Positions 6,394 through 33,039 of a DNA stretch of 33,120 nucleotides are shown here, in pieces. How positions within the stretch are numbered: the stretch's first letter is position 1; every line of letters starts with the position of its first letter. The stretch covers positions 1 to 33,120 of the forward strand of contig JAUYME010000066.1 in assembly GCA_030699515.1 (NCBI GenBank), in the 5' to 3' direction. Made by a program: the position numbers and the translations under genes. This stretch comes from a bacterium (GTDB lineage Bacteria; Patescibacteriota; Minisyncoccia; UBA6257; 1-14-0-10-44-23). Under the pieces are notes generated by a model. It had not been told where the DNA came from. It saw nothing but the letters and a program-made list of their open reading frames with translations, and made no database searches.

Positions 6394-6425
6394 CTTGTCC
6401 ATAACTCTATAGAGTTATGGACAAG
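6394..6425. promoter_or_regulatory. 32-nt perfect palindrome cttgtccataactcta|tagagttatggacaag overlapping the ArsR start codon
   Basis: Perfect dyad. ATG 6417 lies in the right arm. Confidence 0.7.
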
Positions 6426-6749
6426 CCGAGTGTTTTTAGGGTAGACATGACAGAAAGTTCAAGAAAAAATTTTTACAGGTTGGAACGCACTGTTAGGGGC
6501 TTTTCTAATCATAGGCGAATTGAGATTTTGCTGCTGCTTCGAGAGCAGAGGAATATTTCGGTGTCGGATATTGCCAAGGAGTTGAATATTTTGCTCAAGA
6601 CTGCATCAGCTCATGTAAACCGCTTGGCACTGGCTGGTCTGGTTTGGAAGCATTCTGATGGCTCAAGTGTAATTTGTGAGTTAAGCGAACTAGGAGAGAA
6701 GACCGTGGATTTTCTAGAGGATATTGCAGAGAAGTTCAATAAAAAGTAG
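6417..6749 (+). CDS. ArsR/SmtB-family winged-HTH regulator
   Basis: FSNHRRIEILLLL...ISVSDIAKEL...SAHVNRLALAGLV, the typical ArsR HTH. Confidence 0.75.
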   Translation: MDKPSVFRVDMTESSRKNFYRLERTVRGFSNHRRIEILLLLREQRNISVSDIAKELNILLKTASAHVNRLALAGLVWKHSDGSSVICELSELGEKTVDFLEDIAEKFNKK

Positions 6750-8702: not shown

Positions 8703-8875
8703 CCACAATCGCACTATGCCGCGGCACAGTGCGATTGTGGGGAGTGGTGTGGTGGGTGGTTAACAAGGTGGTTAACCGCTATAAAGGCTAGAAAGCCTCA
8801 TGAATACTGGGCTTTTGGGCTGTTTAAAAAAGAATTATATAATTTATTATGTAATAAATTATATAATTCTTTTTT
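8703..8875. repeat. Composite module A: hairpin 8703-8740, GGTGGTTAAC x2 (8755-8764, 8767-8776), aagcctcatgaata, A/T-only palindrome 8826-8875
   Basis: Homologous in order and sequence to 32120-32358. The hairpin stems differ by compensatory changes. Confidence 0.8.
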
Positions 8876-8951
8876 TTGGGAAGTCTTATTAAAAAGCGGA
8901 ACCGGCGGCCCTGGAGAGGGTCGCCGGCGCGCGGATGGAGGGTGGGGCTAG

Positions 8952-9188
8952 CTAGCAAACAGAGTGTCCCTTGTTGATCCACTCGTCGAGCTCTTGCTGT
9001 CGAGGGTCGAAGTGGCAGGTGCCTCCGACCTCGCGCCGACAGATAGGGCAGTTTTGCATGTGCTCTATCAGTCGCCGACCAGCAGGATCTGTCGTCTGCT
9101 CGATGGTCTTGGCCGATGGCAATCTGGGGAAGTAGAGGATTTCTCCTTCCGTCGGTCGCCGATCTTGGGGAGAAGGCTGGTCCACCAT
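8952..9188 (-). CDS. GC-rich mini-ORF (78 aa), CPIC...C.H motif, unknown function
   Basis: SD GGAGA lies 6 nt before the ATG. GC-rich third codon positions. A hairpin plus U-tract follows. The overlapping ORFs 8824..9201 and 8964..9347 look like off-frame translations. Confidence 0.55.
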   Translation of the reverse strand: MVDQPSPQDRRPTEGEILYFPRLPSAKTIEQTTDPAGRRLIEHMQNCPICRREVGGTCHFDPRQQELDEWINKGHSVC

Positions 9189-9778
9189 GGATGGTCTCCA
9201 TTATTCCAGAACCGTCTGGAGCCGTCTTTTCGGATGCGTGAAAAGAAAAACGCCCGCTCGGGAAGCGGGGCTTATCTAGATTCTACTTATAAACAAGGCT
9301 CGCCTCTCGATCAGGAGTTATTAATAATACTAATAATGTTTAATTGAGGAAGGCTCATGCGGTTGATGTTAGCAGATTTATTGATAGCGTTCAACTGCTT
9401 GATTTTTGCGTGAATGTGTGCTATAGTGTTTTTGTAATGAGTATAGATTTACTTTGCGGGATATCGACGAAGTAGATTTCATTCAATTTGTGGCAAAGAA
9501 GACCTTTCGGGGTCTTTTTTGTTTGTTTTGTATAGCCCCTCTCCCTCCATAAAACTTCTTTATTCAAGGCAAAGTTTCTCTACTATTTTCTTCATTAGAA
9601 ATGCTCGCCGATACACTCATTGGTATCGCCTGTGCTTTCCAATTTCGAAAATACTATGAAAATTGCCTTGCCTAAAATATTTCATGAAGGCAAAGGGGCT
9701 TTGCTAATAAATAACGAAGGAAGAGTGACAAAATTTCAGTTTGACAGCGTTTAATATAGAAGTGCTATAATTTCATAA

Positions 9779-15221: not shown

Positions 15222-15509
15222 ATGGCAGAGGATAGGCAAAAGTATAGAAATGTTGAGCGAGTGATGAAGGGAGTGGCGAATCATCGGCGGGCTCAAATCC
15301 TTTATCTATTGAAAGAGGAGCCGGAGCTTTCGGTAGCTGAAATAACCAAAAAGTTAGGAGTAAATTTTCGAACGGTTTCTGATCATACGAAGAAGCTGGT
15401 TCATGCAGGTTTAGTAATGAAAAGATCGGATAGCGTGAGTGTTCGGCACAAACTTACAGATTTAGGACATAAGGTTTTTGAGTTTATCGTAACCTACATA
15501 AAAAACTAG
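15222..15509 (+). CDS. ArsR/SmtB-family winged-HTH regulator (paralog of 6417..6749)
   Basis: VANHRRAQILYLL...LSVAEITKKL...SDHTKKLVHAGLV aligns with the first ArsR protein. Confidence 0.75.
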   Translation: MAEDRQKYRNVERVMKGVANHRRAQILYLLKEEPELSVAEITKKLGVNFRTVSDHTKKLVHAGLVMKRSDSVSVRHKLTDLGHKVFEFIVTYIKN

Positions 15510-16620: not shown

Positions 16621-16915
16621 TTTTTTTGTGCTTTGCCTTGACCTGCGAGACTTTCGTTTGGATGAAGTATCGCCAAGTCAAGGTAGCTTTATTAAAGTTG
16701 TAATAAATGCGACTTTTCTACAGTAGCTGACGATTGAAACTAGCAACTCTTTCCTTGCTATGTTATTCGCTAAAAATCTTTAAGGTGATAAAATGGAATT
16801 GTAGTTTCAAGAAAAGTTGAATATCCCGATATGATAGCTTCTAGTGCCTTTGGCACTAAGCATCAAACGGGATGCTCAATTTTGTAGATAAATCTAAGAT
16901 TTAAACAAAATTGGC

Positions 16916-18763
16916 ATGTGTGGAATTGTTGGATACATAGGAAAGAAAAGGGCAATGCCGGTTTTGCTGGATGGTTTAAAGCGCTTGGAATATCGCGGCT
17001 ACGATAGTGCCGGGGTGGCGATTTTGGAAAACACTGAAGTTAAGGCATTTAAAAAAGTTGGGCGGGTGGAAAATTTGCTTAAAGCGATTGAGACAGCGGG
17101 GGAGTTGGACAGCATGGCCCATATTGGTGTAGCGCATACCAGATGGGCAACTCATGGAAAGCCCAGCGAGGAAAATGCTCATCCGCACAGTGATGAATTT
17201 GGTAAGTTTTGGTTGGTGCACAATGGAATTATTGAAAATTATGAGGAACTAAAGAAAGAGCTTTCAGAGAGCGGGGTAAAATTTAGTTCGGAAACGGACA
17301 CCGAGGTTGTAGTGCAGCTGATTGCTAAAGAAATGGAAGCTGGACTAAGTTTTGAAGAGGCTTTTCGAGTGGCGCTTAAAAAACTTCGAGGAGCTTATGG
17401 AATTGTAGTAATGAGTGCAGACGAGCCGGAATATTTAATGGCTGCAAGAAATTCAAGTCCGCTTTTAATTGGAGTAGGAGATGGGGAAATGATAGTAGCG
17501 TCTGATGCAAGTGCCGTTGTGGGTACAACTAAAAAAATTGTTTATTTGGAAGATGGGGAGTTGGCAAAAGTTTCAGCAGATGGGCTAAAGATTGAGCTTA
17601 TTGCCGAGGCTGGTAAAGAGTTGAAGCGCGAGGCAGAAACTGTAGATATGGATGCAAGCGAAATAGAAAAGGACGGACACGATTTCTTTATGCATAAAGA
17701 AATTTTTGAAATTCCCAGCGCTGTTTTAAATGCGGGAAGGGGAAGGTTTATTGCCAGTGAGGGTTTGGTGAAGTTTGGAGGTATTGAAGAAATTAAAAGC
17801 AAGTTAAGGGATATTGATAGAATTATTATTTCCGCTTGCGGCACCGCAGCCTATGCTGGCTTACTGGGCGAATATTTTATTGAAGAGCTGGCCGGAATTC
17901 CGGTGGAAGTGGAAATTGGCTCTGAATTCAGATACAGAAGCCCTGTATTTACGGAGCGCACTGCTTTAATTGTTGTTTCTCAATCTGGGGAAACTGCAGA
18001 TACATTGGCGGCGGTGCGAGAAGCAAAGGAGAAGGGGATTTTAGTTTTAGGTATTGTTAATGTAGTTGGCTCTACAATTGCGCGCGAAGTGGACTGTGGA
18101 ATTTATACCCATGCCGGTCCGGAAATTGGAGTGGCCTCTACAAAAGCTTTTATTTCTCAGCTTACGGTACTTTTACTTTTGGCTATTTATTTGGGCAGAC
18201 AGCGAAATTTATCTGTAAATGAAACAAAGGAAATTTTGGCAGATTTAGAGAAGCTTCCTGAGCTTTTAGATTCTATCTTGCATCGAGAAAAATTGGCAAA
18301 GAAGCTAGCAAAGAAATATAAAGATTTTACCAGCATGGCTTTCTTGGGTAGAAAATATAGTTTCCCTGTGGCGCTGGAGGGAGCTTTGAAATTAAAAGAA
18401 ATTTCTTATATCCATGGAGAAGGTTATCCGGCAGGAGAATTTAAGCATGGGCCAATTGCGCTCCTTGATGAAAAATTTCCGGTTTTCTTTATATTGCCTA
18501 GCGATGATGTTTACGAAAAAAGTAAATCTAATTTGGAAGAGATAAAAGCAAGGCAAGCGCCTGTAATTGCCATTGTGACTGAAGGAAATAAAGAATTAAT
18601 GAGAATGGCTGATGATGTTTTGGAAATCCCCAAAATAGCAAATATTTTAAGCCCGTTTCTTTCTACGCTTTGGACTTATCTTTTTGCTTACCATGTTGCG
18701 GATATGAAAAATTTGGACGTGGATAAGCCTAGAAACTTAGCTAAGTCTGTGACCGTCGAGTAA
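16916..18763 (+). CDS. glmS: Glutamine--fructose-6-phosphate aminotransferase
   Basis: N-terminal MCGIVGY, two SIS domains, C-terminal KPRNLAKSVTVE. Confidence 0.95.
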   Translation: MCGIVGYIGKKRAMPVLLDGLKRLEYRGYDSAGVAILENTEVKAFKKVGRVENLLKAIETAGELDSMAHIGVAHTRWATHGKPSEENAHPHSDEFGKFWLVHNGIIENYEELKKELSESGVKFSSETDTEVVVQLIAKEMEAGLSFEEAFRVALKKLRGAYGIVVMSADEPEYLMAARNSSPLLIGVGDGEMIVASDASAVVGTTKKIVYLEDGELAKVSADGLKIELIAEAGKELKREAETVDMDASEIEKDGHDFFMHKEIFEIPSAVLNAGRGRFIASEGLVKFGGIEEIKSKLRDIDRIIISACGTAAYAGLLGEYFIEELAGIPVEVEIGSEFRYRSPVFTERTALIVVSQSGETADTLAAVREAKEKGILVLGIVNVVGSTIAREVDCGIYTHAGPEIGVASTKAFISQLTVLLLLAIYLGRQRNLSVNETKEILADLEKLPELLDSILHREKLAKKLAKKYKDFTSMAFLGRKYSFPVALEGALKLKEISYIHGEGYPAGEFKHGPIALLDEKFPVFFILPSDDVYEKSKSNLEEIKARQAPVIAIVTEGNKELMRMADDVLEIPKIANILSPFLSTLWTYLFAYHVADMKNLDVDKPRNLAKSVTVE

Positions 18764-18770
18764 GGATGTG

Positions 18771-18837
18771 GACCCCCGCGTGCTTCGCGCGCTGCACCAG
18801 AGCCGACGAGGCAAGCTCGGGCTCGGTGCGGGGCGGG
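18771..18837. repeat. GC-rich two-hairpin element, copy 1
   Basis: gaCCCCCGC-[GCGUG cuucg CGCGC]-u-[GCACC a GAGCC ga CGAG gcaag CUCG GGCUC GGUGC]-GGGGcggg. Homologous to 19337-19406 and 32844-32912. Confidence 0.85.
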
Positions 18838-18838
18838 T

Positions 18839-18877
18839 AAACCAAGAAATTTGGCAAAAAGCGTTACTGTGGAATAA
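18839..18877 (+). pseudogene. Displaced second copy of the glmS 3' end (KPRNLAKSVTVE*), synonymously different from 18725-18763
   Basis: aaa cca aga aat ttg gca aaa agc gtt act gtg gaa taa translates identically to the last 12 codons plus stop of glmS. It lies 114 nt downstream in the same frame. Confidence 0.8.
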
Positions 18878-18883
18878 AGAAAT

Positions 18884-18916
18884 AAAAAACACCTCGCAAG
18901 CGCGGGGTGTTTTTTA
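18884..18916. terminator. Bidirectional intrinsic terminator
   Basis: aaaaaacacctcgc-aa-gcgcggggtgtttttt, between convergent glmS and the small membrane gene. Confidence 0.7.
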
Positions 18917-18931
18917 TTTTATACTGCTGAA

Positions 18932-19168: not shown

Positions 19169-19336
19169 AGTGTGTATGTTGTTAATTTCTAATGAATACT
19201 AGTAAAAGCATAACATTATTATAGAATAATGCTCGTTTTGCAGTGGAAAAATAGAGAGTAATCGCGAACATCGCGAATTGCGCAAAATATCGCGAATAAA
19301 ACTAAGGCGGGGAAAATTGGGTTATTCCAAGGTTGA

Positions 19337-19461
19337 GACCCCCGCATGGCAAGCCGTGCTGCACCAGAACCAACGAAGTAAATTCGGGCTCGGTGCGGGG
19401 CAGGACTTGGTAGCTTGCTGGTGTGTACTTAGTGATGGGCTGGATAGTTTTTCAATCGGTC
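19337..19461. repeat. GC-rich two-hairpin element, copy 2 (core 19337-19406) plus a ~55-nt tail, bounded by 19-nt direct repeats
   Basis: Core homologous to copies 1 and 3. Direct repeats ttattccaaggttgagacc at 19322-19340 and 19462-19480. Confidence 0.85.
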
Positions 19462-19953
19462 TTATTCCAAGGTTGAGACCGTGGACTGCAAAGATCTAGT
19501 TTCTTTGATTTGAGGATTGTCCGGGTTGGAAGTCAATACAATAGAAATTTGCACAGCAGTGGTAGAGGTGCCGCTAAATTCCTGGAAAGTTAGGCTGTCT
19601 AGCGTAACATCGGCGCTTGTTAGCGCTTCTTGCGAATTTGACCCCAGCTTTCTGTAGATTGTTCCTGCTGAACTGTTGATTATAATCGGGTCGGTGCTTG
19701 ACACTCCGGTAGTAATTGTAAGGGTTGAACTGCTGACAGATATTGATTGACCCTGGCGGACGTCGGTTTTGATAACATTCATTACAAAGCTTAGCTCACT
19801 GCTTAGTTTATAGCCTGAGCTTTGATGCTGCTGAACTCTAAGAATTGTAAATAGTATTCCTGAAAGAAGGCTAAGAAGGATAACGGTAAGGCCAAGGTAG
19901 ATGACCAGCTCAATGAAAGAAAGCCCCCGCGTGCTTCGCGCGCTTTTAAACAC
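19462..19953 (-). CDS. Prepilin-type (type IV pilin-like) pseudopilin; start uncertain (GTG 19953 or ATG 20028)
   Basis: G|LSFIELVIYLGLTVILLSLL is a class III signal/methylation motif. The stretch upstream of the Gly is repeat-derived sequence. Confidence 0.7.
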   Translation of the reverse strand: MFKSARSTRGLSFIELVIYLGLTVILLSLLSGILFTILRVQQHQSSGYKLSSELSFVMNVIKTDVRQGQSISVSSSTLTITTGVSSTDPIIINSSAGTIYRKLGSNSQEALTSADVTLDSLTFQEFSGTSTTAVQISIVLTSNPDNPQIKETRSLQSTVSTLE

Positions 19954-20044
19954 TAATGCACGAATGGGCGCGAATCCTCTAATAAGAAATGAAGGTCCTT
20001 TCGTTTTATTCGGTGATTGATGAATCATTGGTGTATTAGTGTTT
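19948..20044. repeat. MITE-like inverted-repeat element E1 (termini AAACACTAATGCAC ... GTGTATTAGTGTTT)
   Basis: Homologous, in reverse orientation, to 29112-29227. Shares a 19-nt identical end, cattggtgtattagtgttt. Confidence 0.75.
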
Positions 20045-20836: not shown

Positions 20837-21003
20837 GCGAAGTAGACGAAGTAGGCGAAGTAAGCGAATAAACGAAGTAGCAAATAAACGAAGTAGGCGA
20901 AGTAGGCGAAATTAGAATTAACTTTGAACTATTTGGAATATGGCGACCCTTCGACAAGCTCAGGGTGCTCATATTTCTAGATAAATCAAAGATTTATAGA
21001 AAT

Positions 21004-21447
21004 ATGGCAGCAGAAGATGTAGCAAAGCTTAGAGAACAAAGCGGTGCAGGGATAATGGACTGCAAAAATGCTCTTGAAGAGGCGGGTGGCGATTTTGATA
21101 AGGCTTTGGAAATAATTAAAGAAAAGGGTCTTGCGAAAGCAGAAAAGAAAGGGGATAGAGAAGCCGGCGCGGGATATTTGGAGAGTTATATTCACCAAGG
21201 CAGAGTTGGTGTTTTGCTTCATGTAAATGCAGAGACCGATTTTGTTACCAAGAACGAAGACTTTCGGGAAATGGCAAAGAATATCGCTATGCACATTAGC
21301 GCAATGATGCCTTCCAGCGTAGAAGAGCTTATGGAACAGGATTATGTTAAAGACCCAAGTATGACTGTGGAGCAATACGTTAAGAGCGTTATTGGAAAGA
21401 TTGGAGAAAACATTAACGTTGTCAAATTTGCTTGCTACGCTGTTTAA
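21004..21447 (+). CDS. tsf: Elongation factor Ts, short form
   Basis: VAKLREQSGAGIMDCKNALEEAGGDFDKA (UBA-like N-terminus) and NAETDFV. Only about 147 aa. Confidence 0.85.
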   Translation: MAAEDVAKLREQSGAGIMDCKNALEEAGGDFDKALEIIKEKGLAKAEKKGDREAGAGYLESYIHQGRVGVLLHVNAETDFVTKNEDFREMAKNIAMHISAMMPSSVEELMEQDYVKDPSMTVEQYVKSVIGKIGENINVVKFACYAV

Positions 21448-21970: not shown

Positions 21971-22043
21971 CAAAAAGTAGGCGACCCCGCATGCACTGAT
22001 TTCTCCTGTGCATTGTTGCGGGGCCGGGGGGGTGCGTGAGGAC

Positions 22044-22328
22044 TTACGTCGCCTCATCCTCATGGGGGTCCTCCTTGCTAGCAACGAACTCTTGGTTGTA
22101 GGCAGTGTAGACGGCCTTGACCATTGTCCAGGCATCTTCCTCGGAGCCGGCCCGCTCAACTACCCTCTGACTGTTCGGAGAGTACTGATGGAGCATGATG
22201 AGCGCCCAAACGACGATGTAGTCGTTGGTGATCGTGTGCTCCATACCGTCAACGCACACCTTCATGCCAATGAGCTCTTGCAGGCGAGAATAGACCGCGC
22301 CGGTTTCGGGGCGCTTACTGTCGTTCAT
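22044..22328 (-). CDS. GC-rich mini-ORF (94 aa), unknown function
   Basis: SD GGAGA lies 5 nt before the ATG. GC-rich third positions. Own hairpin plus U-tract terminator (about 21975-22025, minus strand). Confidence 0.65.
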   Translation of the reverse strand: MNDSKRPETGAVYSRLQELIGMKVCVDGMEHTITNDYIVVWALIMLHQYSPNSQRVVERAGSEEDAWTMVKAVYTAYNQEFVASKEDPHEDEAT

Positions 22329-22405
22329 CGGGATCTCCTATCGGATATCCTTTTTCCGTTGCTTTATAAATAGCACTTTTGGACTGCTGTGTCTATGTTT
22401 TTTGT

Positions 22406-24756: not shown

Positions 24757-24895
24757 GCCGTTTTGGGTTAAAATAGGGCATTCCTAAGAGTAATCGCTAA
24801 AATCGCGAAAGTACACAAAAAATCGCGAAAAAGATAAAGACGCATAAGACTAAGGAGTAATCGCGAAAAACGCGAATTGATTCAAAATATCGCGA

Positions 24896-25285
24896 ATGGA
24901 AGGCAAAGACCAGAAAATAGAGAGGGGTGAGCTGCAGGCTCTAGTAAAGAAGAGAGATAGCCATGTTAGCCGTCTTTTCTACATGATGCTAGAGTTCTTT
25001 TTAATTTTTGGATTGCCGGCTCTTGCGGCATTTTTTGGTGGCAGGGCGCTAGACTCTGCGCTTGGAACAGGAAAGTTATGGCTTATTATTTTTCTGATAG
25101 CTGCATTTGTTCTGTCTTGGGTAATAGTGGTGCTTAGGGTAAGGAAAATTACAAAGGAGCTGAAAGTGCTGGATGCTAGAATTAAAGAAATTAGAGAATC
25201 CCGTAAAACCGCAACAGCAATGAATGCTGGCGGCCACGGGACTAACTTAAATCAAGATTTAAAAGGAGAAGAAAAGAATGTTTGA
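24896..25285 (+). CDS. AtpZ/AtpI-like small membrane protein preceding the atp genes
   Basis: Two TM helices. Position directly before atpB, with an 8-nt overlap. Confidence 0.5.
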   Translation: MEGKDQKIERGELQALVKKRDSHVSRLFYMMLEFFLIFGLPALAAFFGGRALDSALGTGKLWLIIFLIAAFVLSWVIVVLRVRKITKELKVLDARIKEIRESRKTATAMNAGGHGTNLNQDLKGEEKNV

Positions 25286-26172: not shown

Positions 26173-26403
26173 ATGGAAACAGCAGGAATGTCTGTAGAAG
26201 CAGCAAGTATGATTGCAAAGGGGCTAATTGCTCTTGCAATGGTGGGAACCGCTGCCGGTGAAGGTTACGTTATCGGTAAGGCTCTTGAAGCCATTGGACG
26301 AAACCCAGAGGCTGGAAGCTCTATCTTTGGAAAAATGATTATCGGTGTGGCCATGGCTGAGTCTACAGCTATTTACGCATTGGTGTTGTTTTTCGTCATC
26401 TAG
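26173..26403 (+). CDS. atpE: F0 ATP synthase subunit c
   Basis: Hairpin proteolipid with GRNPE loop and AMAESTAIYALV carboxylate helix. Confidence 0.9.
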   Translation: METAGMSVEAASMIAKGLIALAMVGTAAGEGYVIGKALEAIGRNPEAGSSIFGKMIIGVAMAESTAIYALVLFFVI

Positions 26404-26458
26404 GAGTAATCGCTAATATCGCGAACGGGGGAGGTAATATCGCGAATAAAACAAAAAC

Positions 26459-26941
26459 GTGCAAGAAGTACTAGGAAAAATTGGATTTGATTGGCATTTA
26501 GCCATTGTAAACTTGGTGAATGTATTCATTATTTTTCTGGTACTAAAAAAGTGGGCTTTTGGGCCAATTCAGAACATTATTGATGAGCGAAAGAAGGAGG
26601 TAGATGCAAGTTTGCAGTCTGCGCAAGATGCGCAAAAGCAAAGCGAGATGGCAGAGCAAGAGCGGGAAAAAACCATTGCTAAAGCTAGAAAGGAGGCACA
26701 GGGAATTTTAGAAACTGCCAACGAAGAAAGCAAGGGTATTGTTGAAGAAGGAAAGCTGAAGCTTTCTAAGGAAAAAGATGAGATGCTAAAGAAGGCAAGC
26801 CTTGAGATAGAAGCAAAGAAAAAGGAAAGTGAAGACAAGCTAAAAAGTCAGGCATCCGTCCTTATTACTTCTGGAATTAAGAAAATTCTTAAGGAAGAGG
26901 TGGATAGGGAGATGAACAGTCGCATTATCAACAAAAGTTGA
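26459..26941 (+). CDS. atpF: F0 ATP synthase subunit b (GTG start)
   Basis: N-terminal TM, then a long charged coiled coil. Position in the operon. Confidence 0.8.
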   Translation: MQEVLGKIGFDWHLAIVNLVNVFIIFLVLKKWAFGPIQNIIDERKKEVDASLQSAQDAQKQSEMAEQEREKTIAKARKEAQGILETANEESKGIVEEGKLKLSKEKDEMLKKASLEIEAKKKESEDKLKSQASVLITSGIKKILKEEVDREMNSRIINKS

Positions 26942-32119: not shown

Positions 32120-32358
32120 CCCACAATGCTGTTATGCCCAGGCATAACAGCATTGTGGGAAGTGGTTAGCCCGTCCAGCGCACTTCCTTCGGCCCCGCTC
32201 AAGATAAACAAGGCAGGCAGGGTAAACGGGGTAGGCTAGGTGGTTAACTGAGTGGTTGACTGCTTGGTAGAGTGCTTAAGCCTCATGGATAGAGGGGTTC
32301 TAGTCGATTTGGAAAAGAATTATATAATTTATTATATAATAAATTATATAATTCTTTT
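32120..32358. repeat. Composite module B: hairpin 32120-32159, GGTGGTTAAC/AGTGGTTGAC (32239-32248, 32251-32260), aagcctcatggata, A/T-only palindrome 32313-32358
   Basis: Same order as module A (8703-8875), with an extra ~65-nt GC-rich insert after the hairpin. Confidence 0.8.
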
Positions 32359-32362
32359 TTTG

Positions 32363-32408
32363 GATGCTATATCATATCCGGCCGGATATGATATAGCATC
32401 TTGTTTTT
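32363..32408 (+). terminator. 38-nt perfect palindrome plus T-tract
   Basis: gatgctatatcatatccgg|ccggatatgatatagcatc ttgttttt. Confidence 0.65.
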
Positions 32409-32476
32409 AAACTTGGCAATAAATTGTTAGTATTTAAGTGTTCCTCGAAAATTTCACGACCACGGAAGGAGAATGG

Positions 32477-32677
32477 ATGCAGGAGCAGAAAAGCGCTGTG
32501 GACCCCATGCGCCTCAAGGGGCAGTGGGTGAGCTGTAGGGACCAATGTCGCCCACTCTTCGTTCGCGAAGTGGGTGGCGGTTCCAACCCGCTCGGGCTGG
32601 CTGAGGATGAGCTGGGCAAGGTCATCCTCTGGTCGCCACTGAAGAATGTGGACATCCCCACCGATCTGGGCGTCTGA
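32477..32677 (+). CDS. GC-rich mini-ORF (66 aa), unknown function
   Basis: SD GGAAGGAG lies 5 nt before the ATG. GC-rich third positions. Weak local similarity (C....REVGG....P....EL) to the 8952..9188 product. Confidence 0.5.
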   Translation: MQEQKSAVDPMRLKGQWVSCRDQCRPLFVREVGGGSNPLGLAEDELGKVILWSPLKNVDIPTDLGV

Positions 32678-32679
32678 CG

Positions 32680-32843
32680 CTCACACGGAAGCCACAACTT
32701 CCGGCGCTAGGCGCCGGTACGCAACTTCCCGGGGGTCGCCGTATCTGCGGCGACCCCCAGACCCCATAGCCCTTGTAGCTCCCGCCCGTTGCAAAGTAAT
32801 GGGCGAGGCTCGCCCAGCAGCAAAGCTGCTTCGGGCGGCAATG
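32680..32843. other. Chain of GC-rich hairpins, including a second Y-shaped unit (CCGCCC [GGGCGA ggc UCGCCC][AGCAGC aaa GCUGCU] GGGCGG)
   Basis: ggaagcc-acaa-cttcc, ggcgc-tag-gcgcc and gggggtcgccg-tatct-gcggcgaccccc are read directly. All ORFs here look like off-frame noise. Confidence 0.5.
32769..32781 (+). other. Duplicated fragment of the tRNA-Arg 5' end (gcccttgtagctc versus gcctttgtagctc at 32965-32977)
   Basis: 12 of 13 nt identical, same orientation, 196 nt upstream of the intact tRNA. Confidence 0.6.
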
Positions 32844-32912
32844 GACCCCCGCGCGCTTCGCGTGCTGCACCAGAACCAACGAGGCAAGCTCGGGTTCGGT
32901 GCGGGGCAGGAC
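32844..32912. repeat. GC-rich two-hairpin element, copy 3
   Basis: gacccccgcgcgcttcgcgtgctgcaccagaaccaacgaggcaagctcgggttcggtgcggggcaggac. Confidence 0.85.
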
Positions 32913-32964
32913 TCAATAGCCATTAGCCCTGATGTTGTTTGTATGCTTTGATGCGCGTGAATAT

Positions 32965-33039
32965 GCCTTTGTAGCTCAATGGATAGAGCAGTCCCGTCCT
33001 AAGGGAAAGATGTGGGTTCGATTCCTACCAAGGGCACCA
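32965..33039 (+). tRNA. tRNA-Arg(CCU), CCA encoded
   Basis: GCCTTTG TA GCTC AATGGATA GAGC A GTCCC GTCCTAA GGGAA AGAT GTGGG TTCGATT CCTAC CAAGGGC A CCA. Confidence 0.85.

Follow-up and report, generated by a model that had tools for sequence, protein, structure and literature searches.

Two synonymously recoded ends of glmS flank a short, folded GC-rich repeat in a Patescibacteriota genome

The replacement of a gene end by incoming DNA that brings its own copy of that end is already known, both from kilobase-long islands with integrases and from endonuclease genes of fungal mitochondria. Here we describe such an architecture in a 33,120-nt contig (JAUYME010000066.1 of assembly GCA_030699515.1, hereafter the window) from a bacterium of the Patescibacteriota (Minisyncoccia, UBA6257), in which the 3′ end of glmS is present twice, in two synonymous encodings, with one copy of a 70-nt GC-rich folded repeat, here called E, positioned between them. 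Genomic islands and prophages inserted in tRNA and tmRNA genes rebuild the 3′ end of the gene that they enter, and SGI1 does so in the last 18 bp of trmE; integrative islands of this kind are kilobases long, encode an integrase and have one fixed att core, with an identical crossover segment in both repeats. The closest precedent is provided by the mobile open reading frames (mORFs) of fungal mitochondria, in which an inserted in-frame C-terminus lies upstream and the native one downstream (PMC3630166). The two termini of an mORF-bearing gene show 64-81% nucleotide identity, with nearly all differences synonymous and the protein nearly identical; the cargo is a LAGLIDADG or GIY-YIG endonuclease gene, and the native copy resembles that of close relatives or host usage (PMC3630166). 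The first case was atp6 of Allomyces macrogynus, and atp6, atp9, cox2 and nad3 of Glomus are further examples (PMC3630166). The order at glmS is the same, comprising gene core, inserted C-terminus, cargo and native C-terminus, and the two termini are 67% identical in nucleotides and 100% identical in amino acids, with the downstream copy host-like. The cargo differs, being 70 nt of non-coding structured DNA, and the 75 nt between the termini hold no endonuclease open reading frame (ORF), whereas in mORFs the endonuclease gene accounts for the movement of the element and for the fact that its target has to be recoded and thereby resistant.

The glmS coding sequence (16916-18763, plus strand) encodes a 615-amino acid protein with GATase and SIS domains (MDP3881103.1, on the 33,120-nt NCBI contig) and ends in the copy that we call terminus A. 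Terminus A (18725-18763, plus strand) reads aag cct aga aac tta gct aag tct gtg acc gtc gag taa, is translated as KPRNLAKSVTVE* and is composed of second-choice host codons, with 58% GC at third codon positions. Its stop codon is followed by a 5-nt linker, GGATG (18764-18768, plus strand), that is absent from the other copies of E, then by E copy 1 (18769-18838, plus strand), and then by terminus B (18839-18877, plus strand), which we take as the displaced native end. Terminus B reads aaa cca aga aat ttg gca aaa agc gtt act gtg gaa taa, is untranslated, uses host-preferred codons and ends in the octamer TGGAATAA. From the start of A to the start of B is 114 nt and the copies share one frame, such that the conceptual translation of 16916-18880 is ...DVDKPRNLAKSVTVE*GCGPPRASRAAPEPTRQARARCGAGKPRNLAKSVTVE*. 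The copies differ at 13 of 39 nt, exclusively by synonymous changes, and their longest identical run is 5 nt; both encode KPRNLAKSVTVE and a stop, and B carries zero changes of non-synonymous type despite being untranslated. Chance cannot account for an identical 12-residue peptide plus stop in both copies. When every ORF end in the window was scanned for a re-encoded C-terminus up to 400 nt downstream, glmS was the sole case in a real gene. All GlmS homologues inspected (8000 homologues) have DKPRNLAKSVTVE as their C-terminal end, and any working glmS end must therefore encode this peptide.

A bidirectional intrinsic terminator (18880-18919), composed of an A-tract, an 8-bp GC stem and a T-tract, begins 3 nt past B and is common to glmS and a convergent 78-amino acid gene. 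It is an inverted repeat that gives a terminator hairpin alignment on both strands, and a simple terminator scan did not call it. Immediately after A, the sequence continues with the GC-rich element E rather than with a terminator. The initial annotation of this locus, made from the sequence alone, had described a glmS end present twice, recoded and 114 nt apart with a GC-rich element in between, and both its coordinates and its sequence were confirmed. At the other end of the gene, a 47-nt leader directly 5′ of the glmS start codon (16870-16916) is 81% identical to one directly 5′ of the tsf start codon (20963-21009). This leader contains the palindrome TAAATCnAAGATTTA, and two contigs of the Logan assembly described below (L001 and L048) begin or end within 13 nt of these copies.

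Codon usage was compared between the two ends against a host table compiled from 27 of the window's genes. Wherever the ends use different codons, at 11 positions in all, B has the commoner host codon. The codon likelihood of B lies at the 99.4th percentile of simulated host-like encodings and at the 98th percentile of real host 12-codon windows, and that of A at the 7.7th and 15th percentiles, respectively; B is thus host-like, while A is lower yet within the host range. Together with the adjoining terminator, these values support the earlier suggestion that the downstream copy is ancestral, and B is probably the native glmS end. Because the untranslated B has no peptide-altering change, it was the working glmS end until recently, and A and the element are therefore the newcomer. 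The same lack of non-synonymous-type change in B favors the earlier proposal that a 114-nt insert, made up of a new end and the element, displaced the old end. A and B share 1 of 12 codons, compared with 4.1 expected for independent encodings in host usage (P(≤1) = 0.04), and A resembles a next-best-codon recoding of B, though this signal is weak. An empty allele would show the sequence GACGTGGATAAACCAAGAAATTTGG. The empty glmS sites that the initial annotation had anticipated were not found among relatives, the nearest of which share only ~62% GlmS identity; the best named matches are from Harrisonbacteria and Liptonbacteria (~60% identity), and glmS has a single end in each of the two relatives that were fetched.

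E forms a small family in the window, with three copies scoring 90-99 bits and one 21-nt fragment, and a GC content of 62-76% compared with ~42% for the genome. In the pairwise repeat comparison, the matching stretches were delimited at 18769-18837, 19336-19404 and 32842-32910. Copy 1, at 76% GC, folds into a three-way junction composed of a P1 stem (CCCC/GGGG), a hairpin 1 with a UUCG loop and a hairpin 2 of sequence GCACC-A-GAGCC...GGCUC-GGUGC. The same junction is found in all copies, with a hairpin 2 consensus of GCACC-A-GARCC...GGYUC-GGUGC and a hairpin 1 that is variable in sequence and capped by UUCG-type or CAAG loops. Copy 2 (19341-19405, plus strand, 89.7 bits) is 71% identical to copy 1 in an ungapped comparison, and copy 3 (32842-32912, plus strand) is 91% identical to it. 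An alignment fitted to the model and including two distant relatives has 95.8% of its cells paired, with compensatory changes in six pairs, and 0 of 500 shuffles reached the observed score of this fitted alignment. Rfam 15 has no match covering E, either at the gathering score or at E ≤ 10; only four tRNAs in the window reach the gathering score. Elsewhere, a terminator-like segment at 21982-22030, just downstream of a GC-rich 94-amino acid ORF, consists of GACCCCGC, a hairpin and GCGGGGC followed by a minus-strand T-run; its outer stem has the same sequence as that in E, and hairpin 2 is missing.

E was compared with other short structured repeats. Repetitive extragenic palindromic (REP) sequences and the bacterial interspersed mosaic elements that they form are likewise short, GC-rich, structured and multi-copy, and often lie just past stop codons. 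REPs, however, are simple hairpins with GTAG and without target duplication, whereas E is a three-way junction without GTAG but with gene-end duplications, and no gene for a REP-associated tyrosine transposase is found in the 33-kb window. The GC clusters of yeast mitochondria and the Rickettsia palindromic elements are similar to E in being GC-rich folded mini-elements in AT-rich small genomes, but have no sequence relationship to it. Such mini-elements sometimes lie in frame within coding regions, with parallels in an E-like copy inside a FemAB-family gene and in a 21-nt fragment of E in a pilin leader, both described below. To our knowledge, neither GC clusters nor Rickettsia palindromic elements have been reported to carry or duplicate recoded gene ends.

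The second copy of E is positioned at the end of another gene. A 188-amino acid pilin-like gene (19462-20028, minus strand), with a weak match to the ComGF minor pilin from residue 34 onward, ends in …STLE plus TAA, and this real 3′ end (19462-19480) is the right copy of a perfect 19-nt direct repeat, TTATTCCAAGGTTGAGACC. The left copy (19322-19340) is a displaced pseudo-end of the same gene. Between them lie E copy 2 and a 56-nt tail (19406-19461, plus strand) that runs from E to the right repeat, so that element and tail are bracketed by two pilin-gene ends identical at 19 of 19 positions; the gene end is duplicated here without recoding. At both the glmS and the pilin site, the last base of the stop codon is the end of the duplicated segment, and TGGAATAA ends both native genes, as ...GTGGAATAA in glmS terminus B and ...TTGGAATAA in the pilin-like gene. 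This octamer has six occurrences on both strands of the window, three of which are at these sites, and we estimate the chance that the pilin end would match it at ~1e-3, before correction for the post hoc choice of motif. A further sequence, TTATTCCA at 9201-9208 on the edge of another GC-rich island, was considered as a gene end and rejected. Both sites also have a non-homologous joint at the foot of the P1 stem, with a 4-nt GGTC microhomology at copy 2 and a GG.TAA similarity at copy 1. Gene-end duplication thus goes with E in general; the initial annotation had missed this neighboring 19-nt context.

An independent assembly offers a second view of both sites. In the Logan assembly of SRR13727534, whose reads are possibly the same as those behind the metagenome-assembled genome, contig L001 contains A, the element and B identical base for base. 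The same contig crosses copy 1 and ends exactly at 19340, the last base of the left pilin repeat, and in a second contig, L048, the sequence breaks off precisely where the right repeat begins, at 19462. The Logan graph uses k = 31. The 19-nt repeat is too short to break such a graph, and a repeat-induced break would fall ~30 nt inside E. Branch points at 19340 and 19462 would instead be produced by a mixture of alleles with and without the insert. This suggests that the copy-2 insertion is polymorphic, with filled and empty alleles coexisting in the sampled population; the junction expected of an empty allele is AAAATTGGGTTATTCCAAGGTTGAGACCGTGGACTGC.

Two further features lie near the second site. 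TCGCGA-rich motif blocks (GAGTAATCGCGAAnATCGCGAA ... AATATCGCGAATAAAAC) are found at 19252-19314, just upstream of E copy 2, and at 24784-24896 and 26400-26464, upstream of ATP-synthase genes, and may represent a promoter or operator family. The 21-nt fragment of E (19924-19944, plus strand), comprising the 5′ strand of P1 and hairpin 1 and identical to copy 1 at 21 of 21 positions, lies in frame within the leader of the pilin-like protein, where it encodes SARSTRG, including the Gly at position -1 of the prepilin-type motif. This leader is unusually long (~35 amino acids), and a second, degenerate (K/R)G-x-SF motif lies upstream.

Copy 3 borders a GC-rich island (32405-32765) on the right side of the island and is 52 nt upstream of a tRNA-Arg gene. 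On weak evidence, the segment ATA-GCCCTTGTAGCTC (32766-32781) may be a degenerate duplicate of the 5′ end of this tRNA gene (32961-32977), in which case the duplicate would cover the first 13 nt of the tRNA and 3 nt of leader. Outside this genome, distant relatives of E were found in two contigs. One (L025) has a single copy at 1666-1738 on the minus strand, with 60% GC in a 36%-GC contig, in frame inside an ORF of the FemAB family; the other (L030), a 67%-GC groundwater contig, has two copies, both intergenic, one of which abuts a stop codon. Pattern scans for E across GTDB genomes, JGI metagenomes and IMG/VR gave matches that were nearly all due to chance, in high-GC DNA. The exact sequence of A was not found in viral contigs, copy 3 with its flanking sequence had no blastn match in plasmids or phages, and six-frame translations of E gave no match among 5.8 billion proteins in a search for ORFs that run over other copies.

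The best overall explanation, to which we give an even chance, is that A and E were inserted at glmS, and that E is a mobile or recombination-prone repeat at whose insertion gene ends are duplicated. Positions 18725-18838 would then constitute a 114-nt insertion within the last 39 nt of glmS, consisting of the replacement terminus A and one E, that pushed the native B and its terminator downstream and left B as an untranslated fossil in the 3′ untranslated region (UTR). E would be non-coding, non-autonomous and structure-forming, and when DNA containing it enters beside a stop codon, the gene end may be duplicated through the stop such that the gene stays intact. The pilin site would represent a young state, with perfect repeats and an insert still removable by slippage, which would fit the apparent polymorphism there. 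At glmS, we infer that A came with E from another lineage, also AT-rich given the AGA and TTA codons of A, by a recombination route in which homology to glmS would anchor the left side and non-homologous joining at the foot of the E stem would form the right. With A and B only 67% identical and sharing no run longer than 5 nt, the glmS insert is not lost by repeat recombination and is hence fixed; contig L001 shows no branch at this insertion.

Several observations weigh against this explanation. The insertion is inferred from a single genome, with neither a close relative nor an empty site for comparison. The codon usage of A, at the 15th percentile, lies within the host range, and its foreign origin is not demonstrated; the polymorphism at copy 2 is read from contig ends, not from reads; and the score of the putative duplication at tRNA-Arg, which reaches only the 95th percentile of random positions, does not exceed chance. 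The three inserts have only the E core in common. Beyond it, copy 1 has 5 nt on its left, copy 2 has 56 nt on its right, and copy 3 has a second folded domain of 60 nt on its left and 48 nt on its right, and the similarity between the copy-2 and copy-3 tails is not significant (P = 0.13). The orientation of E relative to the gene is opposite at the two well-supported sites, and the distant E-like copies (one in L025, two in L030) have no flanking repeats. Among the 37 ORFs of the window, Pfam searches found no recombinase, transposase, nuclease or reverse transcriptase, the families present being ComEC, SecA, LepA, MurB, an AsnS/AspS-type synthetase, the ATP synthase operon, S2, EF-Ts and similar. 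Lastly, two routes, plain duplication at the pilin-like gene and import at glmS, are needed to account for similar-looking structures.

The architecture at glmS might alternatively be the scar of a larger element, either an integrase-borne island or a Tn7-like transposon with a replacement end, that was internally deleted down to E. We regard this as doubtful. Islands inserted in tRNA genes or at the 3′ ends of protein genes classically show an attL (gene plus new end) followed by an attR (old end); the 12 codons present twice here form the universally conserved block of GlmS, and copy 3, on the border of a GC-rich island, has a tRNA gene as its neighbor. The initial annotation had likened the locus to integrative islands, and the architecture bears this out, as direct repeats of the gene end flank the insert, with the upstream A completing glmS and the displaced B as a fossil. 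The remainder of the comparison does not hold: the insert is 114 nt, the window has no integrase or other recombinase, the 5-nt longest identity between A and B provides no identical crossover core and is too short for the overlap region of a tyrosine recombinase, and the flanking duplications differ from one E site to the next, when a fixed attP could not carry a fast-evolving pilin end. The apparent filled/empty polymorphism, moreover, concerns the 140-nt unit itself. The likeness to Tn7 and attTn7 drawn in the same annotation fails for every feature tested (position, duplication, ends and tns genes in the window). Tn7 inserts ~25 bp downstream of the glmS stop with a 5-bp duplication and without duplicating the coding end; it carries tnsABCDE and has ends with TGT...ACA termini and repeated 22-bp TnsB sites, and its TnsD recognizes the C-terminal coding block of glmS. 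The same conserved block is involved here, but the insertion point falls within the native coding sequence, 39 nt before its end, and the insert is flanked by 39-nt protein-identical copies. E has no internal 22-bp repeats, only its TGTGGAC start resembling TGTGGGC, and neither tnsA, tnsB, tnsC, tnsD nor tniQ is found among the 37 ORFs, which match housekeeping Pfam families only. The larger elements carrying E or the A-E junction that the annotation had envisaged were absent from the genome, metagenome, viral, plasmid and phage collections searched.

A second alternative, unlikely in our judgment, is an in situ target-site duplication, in which E entered its own glmS end, 39 nt were duplicated and A then diverged synonymously by drift or selection. 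The neighboring copy 2 shows just such a plain duplication (19/19), the single codon shared by A and B looks as if A had been pushed away, and A is built of codons typical of an AT-rich genome (AGA, TTA) and within the host range. The untranslated B, however, should have changed at least as fast, yet it is a perfect, codon-optimal glmS end; 13 substitutions in A and 0 in B would be very unlikely, and if half of the 13 had fallen in B, we estimate the chance that all would be synonymous at ~1e-4. An avoidance of B by A would acquire a different meaning if E were an undescribed selfish DNA whose mobility depended on a trans-acting nuclease or recombinase with TGGAATAA-type cleavage sites beside stop codons, and if it were accompanied by a recoded rescue end. 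This would amount to a natural system of cleave-and-rescue or homing, directed at the termini of essential genes in bacteria of the candidate phyla radiation. The choice of next-best codons in A would then reflect selected immunity rather than phylogenetic distance, and the enzyme would nick after TGGAATAA and spare GTCGAGTAA; we think this quite improbable. It is very improbable that E is instead an RNA or DNA module useful to the host, such as a 3′-UTR stabilizer or translation-coupled regulator, with B kept as a decoy, guide or pairing partner. Its conserved three-way junction with compensatory changes and UUCG- or GNRA-like loops, its start 5-10 nt past the glmS stop, in the transcribed 3′ UTR and upstream of the terminator, and the repeated TCGCGA-rich motif just upstream of copy 2 would suit such a role. 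The opposite orientations of E in the two genes, however, exclude the same RNA in both transcripts, A and B are direct repeats and cannot pair, a 19-nt guide at copy 2 would perfectly match its own chromosome, no Rfam family matches E, and the codon-optimal coding state of B would be left unexplained. We give hardly any credence to an assembly artifact in which the glmS ends of two strains were chimerically joined through the repeat. The contig does belong to a metagenome-assembled genome, and the population seems heterogeneous, the Logan contigs being short. The agreement of L001 nonetheless contradicts a misassembly at 18764-18838, which the initial annotation had named as a possible refutation, as an independent assembler reproduced A, E and B in one contig; A and B share no k-mer long enough for a mis-join (longest run 5 nt), and E copy 1 differs from the other copies and is hence not a collapsed repeat. 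The remaining probability belongs to something else.

Other candidate mechanisms were considered and rejected. For a diversity-generating retroelement, only 6 of the 13 differences fall at A positions of B, all are synonymous, and the window has no reverse transcriptase; target-primed reverse transcription would need the element to be copied from opposite strands at the two sites. As a guide-RNA scaffold for TnpB, IscB or Cas, E is abutted by the duplicate on different sides, and copy 2 would target itself. E has no R′/R″ cores of an integron attC site, and an IS200/IS605-type element would leave the 19-39-nt duplications unexplained. A miniature inverted-repeat transposable element was rejected because only the 4-6-bp P1 stem is inverted, the duplications measure 39, 19 and ~17 nt, and the inserts share only the E core; a transposon with ends defined by a common tail was rejected because copies 2 and 3 show no significant similarity in their tails. 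Stop-codon read-through or ribosomal bypass was rejected because the frame, although open, would be so by expectation over 25 GC-rich codons, and because the codons for take-off and landing are not the same.

The window also contains features at a greater distance from these sites. Together with the island beside copy 3, there are three GC-rich islands (8877-9200, 21971-22405 and 32405-32765) with 55-58% GC in the ~42%-GC genome. Each has one small orphan ORF, namely a 78-amino acid CxxC protein (8952-9188, minus strand), a 94-amino acid protein (22044-22328, minus strand) and a 66-amino acid protein (32477-32677, plus strand). The three proteins have no homologue among 5.8 billion proteins, no match in Pfam, PHROG or NCBIfam and no exact record, and the island ORFs look like foreign DNA. 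A 131-nt module, present with ~80% identity after lepA (8746-8876) and after atpC (32230-32361), ends in a perfect AT-rich palindrome (AAAAGAATTATATAATTTATTAT/ATAATAAATTATATAATTCTTTT), and a GC-rich island directly follows both copies; the module could represent a non-coding RNA, a terminator or a site at which insertions preferentially land. A 37-nt GC-rich unit (GTCCCACCGCCGCCAAGGCTATGGCGGGCAGGCAAAG) is repeated head to tail, in at least three copies, at the start of the contig (44-165); a CRISPR array was rejected, the units being without spacers. Two small genes for helix-turn-helix proteins of the ArsR/MarR type (6417-6749 and 15222-15509) each have a perfect palindrome of their own, 33-37 nt long, with one copy upstream and one downstream of the gene (6393-6425/6757-6789 and 15160-15196/15514-15550).

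What is new at glmS is that a gene-end replacement surrounds a 70-nt non-coding, folded, GC-rich cargo, in an essential gene of a reduced genome of the candidate phyla radiation. Also new is a second, apparently segregating site that shares the boundary flush with the stop codon and the TGGAATAA motif. Were the locus a one-off recombination scar, it would be a neat but minor curiosity. If, however, the link between E and gene-end duplication holds genome-wide, E would rank as a new element, small and either mobile or prone to recombination, in a phylum about whose mobile DNA little is known. The link would then also illustrate the way in which essential genes withstand insertions of this kind, and E together with the TGGAATAA sites would provide a handle for finding the responsible enzyme.

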